IMG/VR virus record: IMGVR_UViG_2565956719_000013
DNA from: a virus
Taxonomy: Duplodnaviria; Heunggongvirae; Uroviricota; Caudoviricetes
Length of the DNA stretch: 41,123 nucleotides
Reading direction: 5' to 3' (one strand)
A program made the translations under genes and the position numbers. Positions within the stretch are counted from its first letter, which is position 1. Every line of letters begins with the position of its first letter. The notes beneath the pieces are model-generated. The model did no database searches, was not told the origin of the DNA, and saw only the letters and a program-made list of their open reading frames with translations. Below, one piece after another: positions 1,290 through 34,218 of the stretch.

Positions 1290-1772
1290 CTATCTGGTCA
1301 AAGTGTCGTACTGTTTTTCGCAGACTCTTCCGGCTTCGGCTGCCCGGTCAGCATACTCTGCCAGTTGTCTGTTTCTCTCGAGAGATTTGCTGAGCACGTC
1401 GGCAAGCAAAACTCCGGTGTCTGCGGCTGACGACCCAGCGCCGACAATGGCGTTATACTGCCTGAGCTGCTCACGGATGGCAAAGAGTTGTTGCTGCAAC
1501 CGGCCAGCGCTAGCGGCAGCATCAAGAGCATCATTGCGCGCCTGGTCGATCCTCTGCTGAGCTTCACGTTCATTGGTCACTTTCTCCTGTTCGTAGTACT
1601 GACGAACTTTGTCTTCTTCGGCTTTGCGGTCTTCTTCCGCCTGAGCATACCCGGCATCGTACTGGCGACTGCCGTGTATATTCCAGGCAACCACTCCTGA
1701 TATGACCAGAACAGCAAGCACTGCCACGATAAGAAACTGTTTCCAGTATGCTTTTACGAATGCCCAGATCAT
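1290..1772 (-). CDS. Rz-like i-spanin (phage lysis protein)
   Basis: N-terminal TM helix then Glu/Arg/Gln-rich coiled coil; ATGA overlap with endolysin stop; contains an embedded out-of-frame lipoprotein ORF. Confidence 0.7.
1298..1534 (-). CDS. Rz1-like o-spanin lipoprotein embedded in Rz
   Basis: alternative frame inside Rz; [13 protein letters not shown] lipobox signal; Pro/Ser-rich; start chosen at ATGATG 1534-1529. Confidence 0.5.
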   Translation of the reverse strand: MMLLMLPLALAGCSNNSLPSVSSSGSITPLSALGRQPQTPEFCLPTCSANLSRETDNWQSMLTGQPKPEESAKNSTTL

Positions 1773-2398
1773 ACCGCCAGCACCTTACTGGCAGTGATGT
1801 ACCGCGCTCGCCGGTCGTCGATGCCGTTCCGGCCACCATTGATAATCAGAGTTACACGTGCAATATCGCCGGTATACTTCATGCATCCTTTGCTGGCGAA
1901 GAACCACGCCGCGCTACGAGCCGCATATCCGTCCTGCGCCAGCAGTTCAGGGCTCTCCAGCAGGTCAACCTTCAGACCGTTTCCGCAATCACGATAGTTA
2001 TTCAAACCGGTAATCTGGATAAGTCCGCGCCCTCGGTAATTCCAGCCATCACCAGGGGCATTGTTCCCCATGCGTTTGCTGTATACCAGATTTGCGATCG
2101 CGCGCTGGCGCTCAAGTGGCAATGGTGGTTCACCAGCACGGCGCCCCAGTGCATTAGCCTGCCCCTGAGTGAGACGCCCAGCCCGAACGAAGTTAGCCAG
2201 TCCGCTGACACTGTAGTTGAAATTCTCCTGCAACCTGGTGAAGCCCCCAGACTCATGCCCGACTTGAGCAATAAACATTGCCTGATCTTCTGCTTTGCTG
2301 ATACCAAACTCTTTCATCGCAGAAGTTATATGCGAGAACCAGCGTGCGGCCAGTGCCTCGCTGATACCAGCAGCTCGCTGGAATTGTTTAATCTCCAT
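1769..2398 (-). CDS. endolysin, glycoside hydrolase family 19 (chitinase-like) type
   Basis: ATG at 2398 with GAGG RBS; motifs [12 protein letters not shown] and GRGLIQITG recalled as GH19 lysozyme signatures; lies between holin and Rz. Confidence 0.75.
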
Positions 2399-2696
2399 GT
2401 TTAGACCTCGATACTTTAAAAATTTGAACGACGTTACCGCGCGTTTTAATAACCGCAGCCAGCATGACAGCGTTGATAATGACCTCAGATAAATCCACAG
2501 CCATTGGCGTACGTAACCAGATTGCATAGGCGACTCGAACAGGAATACTGGCCGCAGCAACAATCAGGAAATAAGCAAGCCATCCTCCCCACCTTCGATG
2601 TTGAGAGCCGTTACGCCGGAATGTGACAACGCGAATTGCTATGCCAGTGCAAATAACTGCATTAGTGATAAGCAAAAAAAACTCATGCGTTACCAT
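2388..2696 (-). CDS. small membrane protein of lysis cassette (holin/antiholin-like)
   Basis: GGGGAGA RBS; 2-3 predicted TM helices; overlaps holin end and endolysin start. Confidence 0.5.
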
Positions 2697-3087
2697 CGTC
2701 TTTTCTCCCCGGAATTAACTCGCGTGGATTATCGGAACGGTGATAGAGCCATATACCAATACGCACAGCGACAATTGCTGACACGAATGCGCCTGCAGAG
2801 AAAACAATCCCTTTTTCAAAAGAGTCCTGCGTGATGGTAGGGATCAGGCTGGCTATGCCGATAAGAATTGATGCTGCTGGTTTGTAAAAGAGAAGGCCGC
2901 AAAGAAAGCTGAGCATCGACAGGAGCACCCGGCGACGGATGGGGTACTCTACTGCAGAGGTAACAAAAATTACCGCCCCAGCCAAAGCCCCTAAAGCAAC
3001 CTCCGGAGGGACACCTGCAATAACTGCAGCAAGAGAACCAAAACTAAGCAACTGATTTAATTGCTCACTTGTTACTTGAGCAGACAT
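2683..3087 (-). CDS. putative holin
   Basis: AGGAGA RBS; several hydrophobic helices; charged C-terminus; first gene of lysis cassette. Confidence 0.55.
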   Translation of the reverse strand: MSAQVTSEQLNQLLSFGSLAAVIAGVPPEVALGALAGAVIFVTSAVEYPIRRRVLLSMLSFLCGLLFYKPAASILIGIASLIPTITQDSFEKGIVFSAGAFVSAIVAVRIGIWLYHRSDNPRELIPGRKDDGNA

Positions 3088-25961: not shown

Positions 25962-26038
25962 GTGGCATTAGCTCAGTCGGACAGAGCAACCGCCTTCTAA
26001 GCGGTTGGTCGCAGGTTCGAATCCTGCATGCCACGCCA
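25962..26038 (+). tRNA. tRNA-Arg (anticodon UCU)
   Basis: 77 nt; acceptor stem GTGGCAT/ATGCCAC, anticodon stem ACCGC/GCGGT with loop CTTCTAA, T-arm GCAGG-TTCGAAT-CCTGC, discriminator G, CCA encoded. Confidence 0.85.
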
Positions 26039-26241: not shown

Positions 26242-26613
26242 ATGAGTGAAAAAGACATTGAATCTGAAATTCAGGCTAAAGGTTTAGCCGCGCCGCGCGT
26301 TACGCCAGACCATATCGAGAGCATTATTGCTCAGGAGGCATATTTCACAGCAGAAGATGGTGCCTTTGGCGTAGCCATAAAAGCGAAACATACTGGCGGA
26401 GAGGTAAACTACCAGCCGCACGAATCACTTTCTCTGCTGACGTTCTGCGTCCTGGTGCTGCGCAACGGCTTCACCGTCACCGGAGAGAGCGCCTGTGCAA
26501 GCCCGGAAAACTTTGATGCAGAAATTGGTCGGAAGATTGCCCGACAGAATGCTGTAAACAAAATCTGGATGCTTGAAGGTTACTTGCTGAAGCAGAAGTT
26601 AAGCGAGCAATAA
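26242..26613 (+). CDS. Gp49-like small phage protein (N4 Gp49 / Sf6 gp66 family, from memory)
   Basis: AAGGTGAG RBS; 123 aa; C-terminal pattern FDAEIGRKIARQNAVNKIWMLEGYLL recalled for this family. Confidence 0.45.
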   Translation: MSEKDIESEIQAKGLAAPRVTPDHIESIIAQEAYFTAEDGAFGVAIKAKHTGGEVNYQPHESLSLLTFCVLVLRNGFTVTGESACASPENFDAEIGRKIARQNAVNKIWMLEGYLLKQKLSEQ

Positions 26614-28897: not shown

Positions 28898-29232
28898 ACT
28901 ATTAATTTCGTTTCATGCCAGCCTTTAGTCACCCAGCATTGCGAGTCACCATTACACGGGCATGAATTAACGGGAACTCTCTCGCCGCACTTACCGCAAA
29001 GTTTTCTGCTGATCGATTTTATACGCCCGCGCACACGTGCATCATCCTGGCGGATCAGCAGCGCGATGTACTCGGCCATTTCATAGGGATCGCGACCAGG
29101 GCGCCGGGCGGCGCAGTTCCGCTCAAGCATTTCAATTTCCTGAGCATCAAGCACAATCTCCAGCTTACGCACACCAGATGCAGCTTGTCTGGCTCTCTGA
29201 GCGGCTTTGCGCTCTGCTGCTGATTTAGCCAT
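28894..29232 (-). CDS. basic protein with C-terminal Cys cluster (zinc-finger-like); candidate regulator
   Basis: ATG 29232 (ORF-track start 29235 is TTG); Arg/Ala-rich N-terminus, CGKCGERVPVNSCPCNGDSQC; last gene before terS. Confidence 0.5.
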   Translation of the reverse strand: MAKSAAERKAAQRARQAASGVRKLEIVLDAQEIEMLERNCAARRPGRDPYEMAEYIALLIRQDDARVRGRIKSISRKLCGKCGERVPVNSCPCNGDSQCWVTKGWHETKLIV

Positions 29233-29506
29233 CAATATTTACCTTTATCGCGAACACCTTTACCGGTTTATCGCCGAAGTGCGGATGTGTGATTGTCTTG
29301 ATTTCATATCCGTCATACGGGACGTCAATTCTGCGGCTGGAATCGTCGCGCTTCGGATATCCCTTTGTGATAATCAGGCGGTCATACTCGCGGAACATAA
29401 TTCGCTTATTCCAGTAGTCATTACACAGGCGATACTCTTCCGTTTTCTCTCCGCGAATCATGGCATCGAAGTATTCACCTTTAACGGCAAGTTGCAGGTT
29501 AGCCAC
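29225..29506 (-). CDS. small protein, possibly ASCH/PUA-like fold
   Basis: GTG start 29506 with strong AAGGAGGAAGG RBS; 93 aa; family assignment tentative. Confidence 0.4.
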   Translation of the reverse strand: MANLQLAVKGEYFDAMIRGEKTEEYRLCNDYWNKRIMFREYDRLIITKGYPKRDDSSRRIDVPYDGYEIKTITHPHFGDKPVKVFAIKVNIDG

Positions 29507-29822
29507 GACCTTCCTCCTTTGGCTTGTGAATTTGTATCGTCATGCCGCTTTGAGTGGTGACTACAACGACAGAACCAGGCTGAAGACTGTTAAGATTGAA
29601 TGCTTCGTAAAACGAAGCCAAGGCCAGCGCTTTTTTATTCTTTCGGTTCCACCAACGCCATCCATTGCTACAGGCTACACTGACAATCCACTGCCCACTC
29701 CTGTAAGCCATATAAAACCAGATGAGCAAAACCTGAATGAATGCTATCCAGTCAATAATCGTATATTTCGCGAAGGAGTCCATCACTTCACCTCCTGTCG
29801 TATATTTCGCGAAGGAGTCCAT
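29499..29822 (-). CDS. small membrane protein; N-terminus spans a 39-bp tandem duplication
   Basis: ATG 29822 overlaps DUF551 stop (TGATG); identical RBS+ATG recurs 39 bp downstream at 29783; one TM helix. Confidence 0.45.
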   Translation of the reverse strand: MDSFAKYTTGGEVMDSFAKYTIIDWIAFIQVLLIWFYMAYRSGQWIVSVACSNGWRWWNRKNKKALALASFYEAFNLNSLQPGSVVVVTTQSGMTIQIHKPKEEGRG

Positions 29823-29836
29823 CACTTCACCTCCTG
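29759..29836. repeat. perfect 39-bp tandem duplication (2 copies)
   Basis: TCGTATATTTCGCGAAGGAGTCCATCACTTCACCTCCTG at 29759-29797 and 29798-29836. Confidence 0.9.
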
Positions 29837-30580
29837 CGGCGGTTCTGGTAGCGGCATCCAGAACAAGGCGTTCCCTAACCACGATAAAGTGCCGTCGCTC
29901 AACTCCACGTATTCCCCTTGTACCTGTCCTGCCATATACTCGCCGTGCTTTGAATAAATTAAAATCCAATCATCTTGAGGGGGCATTCGCTCACTACAGC
30001 TTATCCAACCATCCGGAGTTACCGGAGAGTTGCCAGCCAGTCTACGCAAAACAGCCTTAACAGCCTCAATACGGTCATCATCGCAATTTTCCAGCGTATC
30101 TATGCGGTCGAGCATGATGATGGCGTTATCAATATCAGGATTGCCAGTCCACTCATTACCGCGATTGGATTCGGCAGCCTGGTTGCCAGATGCTGGCTGA
30201 TTGTCGGCTTGGCTATAGCTAACAGCACGGCAGGCATCCTCTACGCCTTTAACTGCATCTGCACAGTAGTTATAGCGATTGCATTCCACTAACTTCTGCT
30301 TGAGATTTTCAATTGCTTGCGCGACATCAGCCTGTATTACGGGAACGGGGGGAGCGGCGTATACTTCAATTGTCCCATTATCAATAGGCCACTCTCCATC
30401 CTTGATGTAGTCACTTGTACCGTCAACTTGCTGTTCTGCAATGTGGAATGCACCTATTGGTTTTGTCTCAAGCGATGCCAGTGCAATTCGTGCCACTTCC
30501 ATTTGTTCGCCACGGGTAAGCCCGTTATCAAGCGGATTTTTAATGAATAATTCGATACGTTCTTTGGTAATAGTGGTCAT
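29822..30580 (-). CDS. DUF551-domain protein
   Basis: AAGGTGA RBS; C-terminal WISCSERMP...FWMPLPEPP matches DUF551 pattern from memory. Confidence 0.6.
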   Translation of the reverse strand: MTTITKERIELFIKNPLDNGLTRGEQMEVARIALASLETKPIGAFHIAEQQVDGTSDYIKDGEWPIDNGTIEVYAAPPVPVIQADVAQAIENLKQKLVECNRYNYCADAVKGVEDACRAVSYSQADNQPASGNQAAESNRGNEWTGNPDIDNAIIMLDRIDTLENCDDDRIEAVKAVLRRLAGNSPVTPDGWISCSERMPPQDDWILIYSKHGEYMAGQVQGEYVELSDGTLSWLGNALFWMPLPEPPQEVK

Positions 30581-30582
30581 AG

Positions 30583-30774
30583 CTATTTCACCTTAATCTC
30601 AACATTTCGCAGCTTTAGCTCTACTGGCAGGTCTGACTTTCCGGTTAATGCTAATGCGAGATTTTCTGGAGTAATGAGAGCCGTTATTGTTTTCCCCATC
30701 GCCAGACGAATAATCATTCGTATCTCGCGATCGTCACATGCTCCCGGCCGAACAATTGAGATTTGTCCGTTCAT
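30583..30774 (-). CDS. small hypothetical protein
   Basis: ATG 30774 two nt after upstream stop; 63 aa. Confidence 0.4.
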   Translation of the reverse strand: MNGQISIVRPGACDDREIRMIIRLAMGKTITALITPENLALALTGKSDLPVELKLRNVEIKVK

Positions 30775-30775
30775 C

Positions 30776-31585
30776 TCACTCTCCTTTGATGCGAATGCCA
30801 GGGGCGCGTGGCACATTAACTTCCACGATGCGCACTGTTGGTTTGTACATCTCAATCGCTGTCAGCCAGTCAGCTCCTGTCATGCGCTTTTCCACATCGC
30901 CATTAGTCCACTGAACCGGTACACCAATAGCCTTCATCGCGATTTCTATTTCCCCGGCGATGGCGCTTTTTCCGCAACCAGTAAAACCAGAAACAACGAC
31001 AAGAACTTCGCCTTTGGCTGGTTTTATTTCCCGTGCTTCCAGTTCTGCAATGCGCTTCTCTGCGGCTTCCAGCTTCTCGCGCATATCGTCAACGTACTCG
31101 ACCAGAGATCCGCCAGCAGGAATTTCGCATTCCTCGACCAGTTGGAAGTAGATATCAGCTGCGGCCCGTGTGTTGCTATGCCTAGCGTCGCCCATCTCAC
31201 CTTCACGAAGAGCATCGCGTTCGGCGGTAAGATTGGCTATTTTGCTGTCTTTGCCTTCCAGCTCAACACGCAGTTTCCCTACCGTTAGCGCAATATCCTC
31301 GTTCTCCTGATCGCGGGATTTGATGTATTGCTGGTTCCTTTCCCGTTCATCCAGCAGCGCCAAGACGGTAGCCGGATTGGCTGCGGCGATGAATTCAGCA
31401 TCACGAGATTCGTTTTCACTGAACACCATAGCTATTTGCTCATGGTTTATGCCGTCAGTGGAGTAAATCTCATCGTCGAATTCAACAGCCCACTTACCTT
31501 TCGTAGCCTTCTCCGCCGCCTCACGCAGTGCCTGATAGTCAATCTTGCTCACTGGTTGCCTCCTTTGCGAATCTGTTCCGCCCAT
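30776..31585 (-). CDS. Ead/Ea22-like protein with C-terminal P-loop-like motif
   Basis: N-terminal IDYQALREAAEKATKGKW, central coiled coil, GFTGCGKS Walker-A-like near C-terminus; start uncertain (no clear RBS, 37-nt overlap upstream). Confidence 0.45.
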   Translation of the reverse strand: MGGTDSQRRQPVSKIDYQALREAAEKATKGKWAVEFDDEIYSTDGINHEQIAMVFSENESRDAEFIAAANPATVLALLDERERNQQYIKSRDQENEDIALTVGKLRVELEGKDSKIANLTAERDALREGEMGDARHSNTRAAADIYFQLVEECEIPAGGSLVEYVDDMREKLEAAEKRIAELEAREIKPAKGEVLVVVSGFTGCGKSAIAGEIEIAMKAIGVPVQWTNGDVEKRMTGADWLTAIEMYKPTVRIVEVNVPRAPGIRIKGE

Positions 31586-32620: not shown

Positions 32621-33421
32621 TTACTTGATAAATCCTGCCGCCTTTCCCCGCCTGTACTCCTCCATCAGCCACTGCGCCGGTGTTATTCCACCAAGGGTGG
32701 CGGCGTTAGGCATGCACCCGAAACTTCGCCCTGGTGGATGGTAAACGTCTCTCCCTGTGTCCGGAGGTGTACTCATGGGCTCTGGCTTTGCCTGTATGCT
32801 GATCACCGGATCGGGTATCTGCTGTCCCGAAGCCACCTTTTTCGCCCAATCATCGAGCAGCCTGCGCGCGTGTTTCTCAACCTCAATCTCGCTAAGCTGG
32901 CGCTGATACATTGCACGGCGGGTATCACATACGACCCAGTACATAACCGGATGCCGCCACGGGAATCTTTCGGGACCACCAGGATATAAACTTTTTTCCT
33001 TGCTGTACCGGTGAAACTCCGCCATCACATCGTCAATGGTGACGCCAAGAACCATCTTGCTGTCTTTGCACCACTTGATAAATTGCCCTGGAGACGGCCA
33101 GAACGGAGATTCACTGGCGCGGGCGTGGCGCATACCAGCAGAAACCTGTTCACGGGTTCGGATCCCCCCTTCGGCAAACGCAGCAATCCACTGCTGTTTT
33201 GCAGCAACTTCCTGCTCTGGCGTCTTCAGGTTGGTTACCACTGCCGCCGGAAACAGTTGTTTCAGCTGTTTAAAAAGGGCATCAACAAGCCTCTCTGCTG
33301 ACATGTTCACCACATTGTCATTGTTGACGTACTGATGCTCATAACCTGACATGCGAGAAAGGGCTTCTCCGTCACGGTTTTGTATCGCGGTAAAAACGTT
33401 GTTCACAAGAAATCCTCCCAT
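32621..33421 (-). CDS. replication protein P-like (helicase loader)
   Basis: QEVAAKQQWIAAFAEGGIRTREQVSAGMRHARASESPFWPSPGQFIKWCKD closely parallels lambda P as recalled; true start may be an internal ATG (33352). Confidence 0.7.
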   Translation of the reverse strand: MGGFLVNNVFTAIQNRDGEALSRMSGYEHQYVNNDNVVNMSAERLVDALFKQLKQLFPAAVVTNLKTPEQEVAAKQQWIAAFAEGGIRTREQVSAGMRHARASESPFWPSPGQFIKWCKDSKMVLGVTIDDVMAEFHRYSKEKSLYPGGPERFPWRHPVMYWVVCDTRRAMYQRQLSEIEVEKHARRLLDDWAKKVASGQQIPDPVISIQAKPEPMSTPPDTGRDVYHPPGRSFGCMPNAATLGGITPAQWLMEEYRRGKAAGFIK

Positions 33422-34218
33422 GCTTCAGGGCTGTTCCAGTGCGGAACGTTGTTATCAGGTAATGTTGATTGCTTCTGTCTGCTAATCTGCAGCCGCCTTG
33501 CCAGCTTCTGCTCCCACTGTGCCTGATGGTATGCCTTACCCTCAGCCATCCAGTAAATTCTGAACTCTGCAAGTTCCTGTGCCGTTGGCAGACTGTCCAG
33601 GTAGATCCCCTGCAATGAGCTTTTCCGAAGAAAGTCATCTGATGGCTGCCATTGTTCATGCATGACAAATTTGCCTAATTGCCCTGGCCCACCAGGAGGA
33701 ACAAAGTTATTCATCACGGCGTTGTTTGCGCCGGGGTCATGAGGCACAGAATCCCCGCTTTTTGTCCTGCTCTCCCTCTCTTGGTTAAATGACTGGTTAT
33801 ATGACTGGTTCTGGATCCCGTTTTTGGGATCATTCAACATCCCGTTTTTGGGATCATTCAACATCCCGTTTTTGGGTATATTCCCATTTTCGGTAACATT
33901 ACCGTTTTCGGGTTCATTACCCCCTTCCCGGTTGCCTTTAATGTTCCCGTTTTTGGTTATATTAAGAGAGAAAACCCGCACTCTTTTCGTCGCTCCCTTT
34001 CTCTCTCCGGTATCTGAAATAAGCCCCATTTTCATGAGCGATATAAGCCCGGCCTGCACGGTTTTTTTATTCAGGCAAGTGTCTTTAACGAGGCGTTCTA
34101 TGCTGGGGTAGCAGAGGTTATATTCATCGGCTCTGTCAGCCATCGAGAGCAGTATGAGCTTTAATGACGAGCTACCTGGATCTGTCTCCCAGGCCCAATC
34201 TGTTGCATGTCTGCTCAT
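33403..34218 (-). CDS. replication initiator, O-like, with origin iterons inside the gene
   Basis: GGAGAT RBS; N-terminal HTH-like region; central NG(N/M)-repeat peptide encoded by DNA iterons. Confidence 0.6.
   Translation of the reverse strand: MSRHATDWAWETDPGSSSLKLILLSMADRADEYNLCYPSIERLVKDTCLNKKTVQAGLISLMKMGLISDTGERKGATKRVRVFSLNITKNGNIKGNREGGNEPENGNVTENGNIPKNGMLNDPKNGMLNDPKNGIQNQSYNQSFNQERESRTKSGDSVPHDPGANNAVMNNFVPPGGPGQLGKFVMHEQWQPSDDFLRKSSLQGIYLDSLPTAQELAEFRIYWMAEGKAYHQAQWEQKLARRLQISRQKQSTLPDNNVPHWNSPEAWEDFL
33815..33959. repeat. origin-like iteron array
   Basis: ATCCCGTTTTTGGGAT at 33815, 33839, 33863 (24-bp spacing) plus degenerate copies at 33881, ~33899, 33944; adjacent ATGACTGGTT x2 at 33789-33810. 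Confidence 0.6.

Follow-up and report, generated by a model that had tools for sequence, protein, structure and literature searches.

The junction between the DUF551 and DUF4752 genes of a phiV10/epsilon15-like prophage carries a perfect 39-bp tandem duplication, which we consider likely to be a genuine, heritable and rare in-frame allele that arose in one illegitimate event, has since been recombined and is near neutral. Tandem Repeats Finder, run on the window (the whole stretch of 41,123 nucleotides that was analysed), reported the repeat at 29759–29836 with a period of 39, 2.0 copies, 100% matches, no indels and a score of 156. The coding strand is the minus strand, on which the unit reads CAGGAGGTGAAGTGATGGACTCCTTCGCGAAATATACGA and occurs twice, at 29836–29798 and then at 29797–29759, the strand running ...CCAGAACCGCCG, then CAGGAGGTGAAGTGATGGACTCCTTCGCGAAATATACGA two times, then TTATTGACTGG... 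Neither flank prolongs the 39-bp repeat, and the breakpoints are thus without microhomology. Given the base composition of the window, about 1e-19 perfect 39-bp tandems would be expected at period 39, and about 7e-17 when every period from 10 to 500 is allowed, so the repeat is not a product of chance.

The window is a temperate podovirus prophage of E. coli, collinear with phages PAS61, phiv142-3, HEMP4 and phiV10, with 74–91% coverage at 96–98% identity. On the minus strand, genes for a DnaT/HTH_36 initiator, a lambda-P-like protein, DUF1064 and Ead/Ea22 proteins and a 90-aa ORF precede DUF551, which is followed by DUF4752, an ASCH-domain gene, a 113-aa regulator-like protein and the small and large terminase subunits. 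The ASCH-domain gene (29225–29506, minus strand, 93 aa; in the ORF list, annotated by RefSeq in relatives and matching phrog_625) overlaps the DUF4752 stop by 8 nt and belongs to the same operon-like string. Two plus-strand ORFs, at 29460–29957 and 29737–30060, were rejected as genes, being antisense to three genes with Pfam or PHROG support.

The DUF551 gene (29822–30580, minus strand, 252 aa), which is in the ORF list and was called as a gene in the source assembly, matches PF04448 over residues 191–249 (5.1e-10, 40.5 bits against a cut-off of 22) and is a member of that family. It ends in CAG GAG GTG AAG TGA, with the stop codon (29824–29822) inside copy 1 of the unit, the upstream copy by transcription (29798–29836, minus strand, delimited from Tandem Repeats Finder and the sequence). 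The DUF551 protein is therefore left unaltered by the duplication and still terminates at its own TGA. The unit consists of the last four codons and stop of DUF551, an SD, an ATG and the first 25 nt (8⅓ codons) of DUF4752. In copy 1, the sequence AGGAGG (SD1, 29830–29835, minus strand) stands 7 nt upstream of ATG1 (29820–29822, minus strand), whose A is at the same time the last base of the DUF551 TGA (TGATG). Copy 2 (29759–29797, minus strand, delimited in the same way) contains an identical AGGAGG (SD2, 29791–29796, minus strand), read in the ATG1 frame within the codons Thr-Gly-Gly, followed by ATG2 (29781–29783, minus strand) and the first 25 nt of the ORF. The preliminary description had held that the duplication is perfect, that its unit joins the DUF551 stop to the SD and ATG of the next gene, that the second copy adds 13 residues in frame and that it creates two identical initiation sites. 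Each of these points is borne out, the first by Tandem Repeats Finder together with the minus-strand reading and the second by the anatomy given above; no stop codon lies between ATG1 and ATG2, and the two initiation regions are identical from −14 to +25.

Two forms of the DUF4752 protein can be read from this arrangement. The long form (29499–29822, minus strand, 107 aa), which starts at ATG1 and is the gene call made in three assemblies, consists of MDSFAKYTTGGEV (13 residues) followed by the normal 94-aa protein; the short form (29499–29783, minus strand) is the canonical 94-aa protein and starts at ATG2. Single-copy relatives match only one copy of the unit in alignment, identifying ATG2 as the ancestral start, and their RefSeq annotation has a 94-aa (285-nt) DUF4752 gene. 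For annotators, the 107-aa and 94-aa calls are thus one and the same gene. The translation is a clear member of PF15944 (4.5e-34, 116.8 bits against a cut-off of 27), with positions 2–84 of the 84 in the family model aligned to long-form residues 21–104 and the 13-residue extension outside the domain. The preliminary description had named GGEVMDSFAKYT as the repeated residue string; this string occurs twice only in a longer, TTG-initiated mechanical ORF, whereas the addition made from ATG1 is MDSFAKYTTGGEV, so the count of added residues stood and their identity did not. Our literature search found no paper mentioning DUF4752 and none on strain HVH 148.

The exact 107-aa product was found, by look-up in a protein collection, on three contigs from different sources. 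One of them, from E. coli HVH 148 (GCA_000495015.1, contig KI538723.1; L002), is identical to the window and has the 252-aa DUF551 gene. The other two, from GCA_902849925.1 (L001) and from the ENA metagenome assembly ERZ28630185 (L003), likewise carry two copies with the same breakpoints, their DUF551 genes being called at 231 aa and 380 aa, respectively. Three different DUF551 alleles thus stand upstream of the same junction. In coordinates counted from the copy 2 start, identity between L003 and the window extends over −230 to +2895. L001 matches the window without differences only between about −30 (31–49 nt upstream) and +483, its sequence further downstream having about 95% identity to the window, and in its copy 1 a G>T substitution is found at unit position 9, between SD1 and ATG1, which is synonymous in DUF551.

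We compared the one-copy and two-copy states in related prophages, as the preliminary description had proposed, and found the single copy to be common and the two copies rare. A 161-nt query of the region had matches in 1,473 genomes; among the matches listed, every full-length one spans 122 nt (161 minus 39), and some are otherwise 100% identical. The single-copy junction occurs on at least 80 IMG/VR contigs. A look-up in the protein collection, which is blind to duplicated alleles annotated from ATG2, gave 813 contigs with the exact 94-aa protein against 2–3 with the 107-aa form; the commonest DUF4752 allele is found on at least 1,000 contigs. As junction probes we used a 50-mer centred on the novel joint or a 30-mer; a k-mer that marks the junction is TTCGCGAAATATACGACAGGAGGTGAAGTGA. 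The 50-mer had no match in 5,426 complete E. coli genomes, INPHARED phages or PLSDB plasmids, nor the 30-mer in IMG/VR, GTDB species representatives or JGI metagenomes, absences that describe the collections searched and say nothing of how frequent the junction is among draft E. coli assemblies, of which there are several hundred thousand. A degenerate gapped pattern, designed to pick up any 26–56-bp duplication of the start region, likewise returned nothing from IMG/VR, GTDB representatives or JGI metagenomes. By exact look-up, neither a hypothetical three-copy protein nor any of six other common DUF4752 alleles with the duplication added was present in the collection of 15 billion proteins, and the longer DUF4752 homologues that came up in a homologue search, considered as possible other duplications, were frameshifts, fusions or alternative start calls. 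The data thus hold just the one-copy and two-copy states, with the two-copy state confined to one DUF4752 allele.

The duplicated or non-duplicated state is uncoupled from the flanking alleles. Around the indel, a single-copy phiV10-like prophage from isolate AF14 (L088) agrees with the window at every base over 190 bp on the left side and 524 bp on the right, and the 3′ part of the DUF551 gene in L003 is 99.87% identical to the allele of two single-copy genomes (L088 and L007). In the complete genomes L007 and L088, this 3′ part belongs to a 295-aa gene; the 380-aa DUF551 call in L003 (2910–4052) suggests that its 5′ module is different or that the call is a fusion.

Aligning 58 unique IMG/VR contexts of the junction, we found column conservation of 0.35–0.55 upstream of about −40 and of 0.86–1.0 from −20 to +260, with a drop after +280. 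On this sequence evidence, DUF4752 is a discrete mosaic cassette, and the duplicated segment lies within its conserved 5′ boundary. The last approximately 40 nt are common to different upstream genes, including DUF551 variants, Ead/Ea22-like genes and a gene for a pyrophosphohydrolase-domain protein. In the IMG/VR loci L008–L087 (window about 29460–29870), these shared last approximately 40 nt of many upstream genes encode ...WMPLPEPPQEVK. A common junction variant, seen in the single-copy loci L004 and L006 at the equivalent of window 29825–29828, has GGTTAATTGATG in place of GGTGAAGTGATG; in copy 2 of a duplication, GGTTAATTGATG would put an in-frame TAA 11 codons after ATG1, and the 13-residue read-through is possible only with the GTG-AAG variant.

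In the history that we favour, one illegitimate duplication without microhomology would have doubled a 39-bp segment within the conserved 5′ boundary of DUF4752, probably through a template switch during replication or through non-homologous joining. The duplicated allele would later have come to stand beside different DUF551 alleles by homologous exchange in the conserved flanks. A single origin is probably the most economical account, given the identical breakpoints and the single DUF4752 allele; because the breakpoints are without microhomology, recurrence of an identical duplication is unlikely. Direct repeats in E. coli are unstable through RecA-independent replication slippage (PMC7063769), and loss of one copy by this route would be expected occasionally and may add to the pattern. 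The duplication also tags a small DUF4752-module lineage recombined among phiV10-like prophages.

The consequences for translation would depend on which start is used. Ribosomes that end DUF551 or bind SD1 would make the 107-aa protein with the extra MDSFAKYTTGGEV, and the second identical SD and ATG, 39 nt downstream, could still yield the normal 94-aa protein; judged from the sequence, DUF4752 can be made as the 107-aa form, the 94-aa form or both. We infer that ATG1 is favoured by coupling and by its first position, and that elongation from it would partly occlude ATG2. RNA folding of the single-copy and duplicated junctions with eight flank sizes gave context-dependent accessibility of SD1, SD2 and the ATG codons, with no consistent preference. 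The junction could provide a small natural test case for the choice of ribosomes between two identical in-frame starts, one coupled and the other not.

The product had been described as a small membrane protein, which is plausible on prediction. The Kyte–Doolittle maximum is 1.82 at residues 21–39 of the long form, and the 25 residues after this hydrophobic segment carry a charge of +6. An AlphaFold2 model of the 107-aa form, computed from a 13-sequence alignment, has a helix at residues 21–40 with a pLDDT of 84–85 (mean pLDDT 63.6); only this hydrophobic helix is confident, and the extension is of low confidence. DUF4752 is accordingly predicted to have a single N-terminal transmembrane helix followed by a basic juxtamembrane stretch, which would give it an N-out/C-in topology. 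The N-tail grows from 8 residues with a net charge of 0 in the short form to 21 residues with a net charge of −1 in the long form. We consider the duplicated allele to be probably tolerated and near neutral, since the duplicated segment carries a complete initiation region, so that the wild-type product would still be available, and since the extension is short, has a net charge of −1 and is predicted to project into the periplasm from an N-out helix. A strong advantage is hard to square with the rarity of the allele, and strong harm with its persistence through recombination. The N-terminal motif FAKYT is invariant down to homologues of 60–67% identity, and the extension might therefore not be entirely neutral.

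Several other explanations of the second copy were weighed. That it is an assembly or sequencing artefact, absent from the DNA, had been named beforehand as the outcome that would undo the preliminary description. In its favour, the window comes from a short-read draft assembly of 2013, and none of the complete E. coli genomes searched has the junction, but the identical junction in two more independent assemblies from other projects, one a metagenome, with different flanking genes and in one case a substitution in copy 1, makes this very unlikely. A 39-bp tandem is, moreover, well below read length, and assemblers rarely fabricate such repeats. With the same junction found three times in different backgrounds, an artefact is not credible, and we assign it a negligible probability. 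It had also been claimed that the perfect match of the copies implies either a recent event or a site of variable copy number, and this claim is supported only in part. A private, just-arisen event does not fit an allele found beside three DUF551 alleles, in one background that is about 5% diverged downstream and carries the copy-1 substitution. As for a variable site, one and two copies are indeed seen, but there is no three-copy allele and no other duplication of the start site. The stronger version, in which the junction is a contingency hot spot that gains and loses 39-bp units and so modulates DUF4752 expression, draws on the proneness of perfect direct repeats to slippage (PMC7063769) and on the occurrence of the duplicated and single-copy states beside the same DUF551 allele, for which either gain and loss or recombination could account. 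We strongly doubt it: states beyond one and two copies are missing, the gapped pattern was negative in IMG/VR, GTDB representatives and JGI metagenomes, the protein collection contains neither the three-copy protein nor duplications on the six other alleles looked up, breakpoints without microhomology make recurrent identical events improbable, and a unit that is a multiple of 3 allows no on/off switching. A further account differs from an intramolecular duplication in origin alone, has the same consequences and is not exclusive of it. Here two phages that share the junction would have been joined out of register by illegitimate recombination, parent A supplying the DUF551 end and the first 25 nt of DUF4752, and parent B the last 14 nt of the upstream gene and DUF4752. 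The duplication sits precisely within the narrow conserved stretch at the edge of the DUF4752 module, the point at which many different upstream genes join, and its breakpoints are without microhomology, as non-homologous joining predicts. Both copies are, however, identical in the window and in L003, giving no sign of two parents, and the end product would be indistinguishable from that of an intramolecular duplication; we regard such a scar as possible, if rather unlikely.

A last group of explanations grants the duplication as a real allele and gives it a function. It might be adaptive, kept for two isoforms of 107 and 94 aa or for higher or uncoupled expression, in the manner of holin and antiholin. 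Two in-frame, identical SD and ATG sites 13 codons apart in the gene of a small phage protein predicted to cross the membrane once would suit this idea, as would the survival of the allele through at least two recombination events and a conserved N-terminal motif, given which an altered N-terminus could matter. The allele is nevertheless very rare beside single-copy alleles, its extension lacks the added positive charge that makes lambda S107 an antiholin (PMC9636201), DUF4752 lies outside the lysis cassette (1290–3087), and no variation within the extension exists from which to gauge selection. We therefore hold an adaptive dual start to be unlikely. A more specific form, a newborn dual-start membrane protein in which the coupled ATG1 gives 107 aa with a duplicated periplasmic FAKYT, ATG2 gives 94 aa and the isoforms differ in activity or cross-regulate, seems to us improbable. 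The rare, near-neutral allele of single origin that we prefer would still be an example of how N-terminal extensions or dual-start genes could arise in phage accessory genes. It carries little weight for biology at large, and is of interest as a clean natural copy of a whole initiation region at a coupled junction.

Set beside known systems, the duplication belongs to the ordinary class of small in-frame tandem duplications that arise by slippage or illegitimate recombination. Like these, it is a perfect head-to-tail copy of tens of bp divisible by three, and a rare allele beside a common single-copy allele for which loss by slippage is expected (PMC7063769); it differs in having no flanking microhomology and in a unit that spans a gene junction, with an initiation region and a stop codon. 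It does not belong to the variable-number tandem repeats, which have three or more copy states, the junction and gapped searches having been negative in six collections, nor to contingency loci that are switched on and off by copy number, since 39 nt are 13 codons and both ORFs are intact in both states. A target-site duplication made by a transposon or integrase was rejected because nothing lies between the two copies; to our knowledge, 39 bp is also longer than the target duplications of known bacterial transposons. A CRISPR-like repeat duplication was likewise considered and rejected.

The junction also resembles three systems of phage genes. Overlapping stop and start codons (TGATG or ATGA) are a mark of translational coupling in many phage and bacterial operons. 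In this way, one base belongs both to the TGA of DUF551 and to the ATG of DUF4752, with the SD inside the end of the upstream gene, an arrangement that is kept for copy 1; the difference is a second, uncoupled initiation region that follows in frame 39 nt further downstream. In lambdoid and P22-like phages, mosaic modules are bounded by short conserved junction sequences at gene borders, as described by Hendrix, Juhala and Casjens. The DUF4752 cassette is similar in its sharp drops of similarity about 40 nt upstream of the start and at the 3′ end and in being joined to many different upstream genes, and differs in that the duplication is inside the boundary rather than being the boundary itself. 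The third system is the dual starts of holins (lambda S105/S107 and phage 21 S68/S71), in which, as here, two in-frame N-terminal starts could give two isoforms (PMC9636201). ATG1 and ATG2 do supply two in-frame starts in a small protein with one predicted transmembrane segment. The holin starts are 2–3 codons apart, and the longer form gains positive charge (PMC9636201). Holins use one shared initiation region, whereas the two starts here are 13 codons apart and each has its own SD; a holin gene lies in the lysis cassette, whereas DUF4752 lies between replication and terminase genes; and the dual start is a family feature in holins, whereas here it is a rare allele with a net negative extension. 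Assignment to the holin dual-start motif was rejected on two grounds, the N-tail going from 0 to −1 where the longer holin form has extra positive charge, by which translocation of its N-terminus is blocked (PMC9636201), and DUF4752 being placed at 29.5–29.8 kb, away from the lysis genes, where a holin gene would neighbour that of the endolysin.

The lysis cassette itself (1290–3087) comprises holin-family genes of PF05449 and PF16931, a GH19 endolysin gene and a DUF2514 gene. The two holin-family genes are adjacent on the minus strand, that of PF05449, encoding a holin with three transmembrane segments, at 2388–2696 and that of PF16931 at 2683–3087, and lie upstream of the genes for the GH19 endolysin (1769–2563) and the DUF2514 protein (1290–1772). 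Beside the lysis genes, positions 1–1163 of the window have no match in phiV10-like phages, whose matches start at 1163 or 1645. This left end carries genes for a glycine-zipper/TraT-like protein (1–516) and a DUF5384 protein (532–1071), and is either host flank or a moron region. A tRNA-Arg gene (anticodon TCT, 25962–26038, plus strand) lies on the strand opposite to the surrounding structural genes, between the genes for the head–tail connector and the terminase, with a Gp49-like gene (26242–26613) nearby.

Upstream of DUF551 in the minus-strand series, the 271-aa DnaT/HTH_36 gene (33403–34218) contains a cluster of short tandem repeats at 33782–33921 (minus strand), with 2.6 perfect copies of 24 bp, 3.1 copies of 18 bp and 2.4 copies of 12 bp and a recurring CCCAAAAACGGGAT-like core. 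By analogy with lambda O, these repeats look like replication-origin iterons within an initiator gene. The 90-aa mechanical ORF that precedes DUF551 (30583–30855, minus strand) overlaps the end of the Ead/Ea22 gene (30776–31585, minus strand) by 80 nt. Its PHROG match begins at residue 28, and its true start is therefore probably an internal ATG (MNGQ...) just after the Ead/Ea22 stop.
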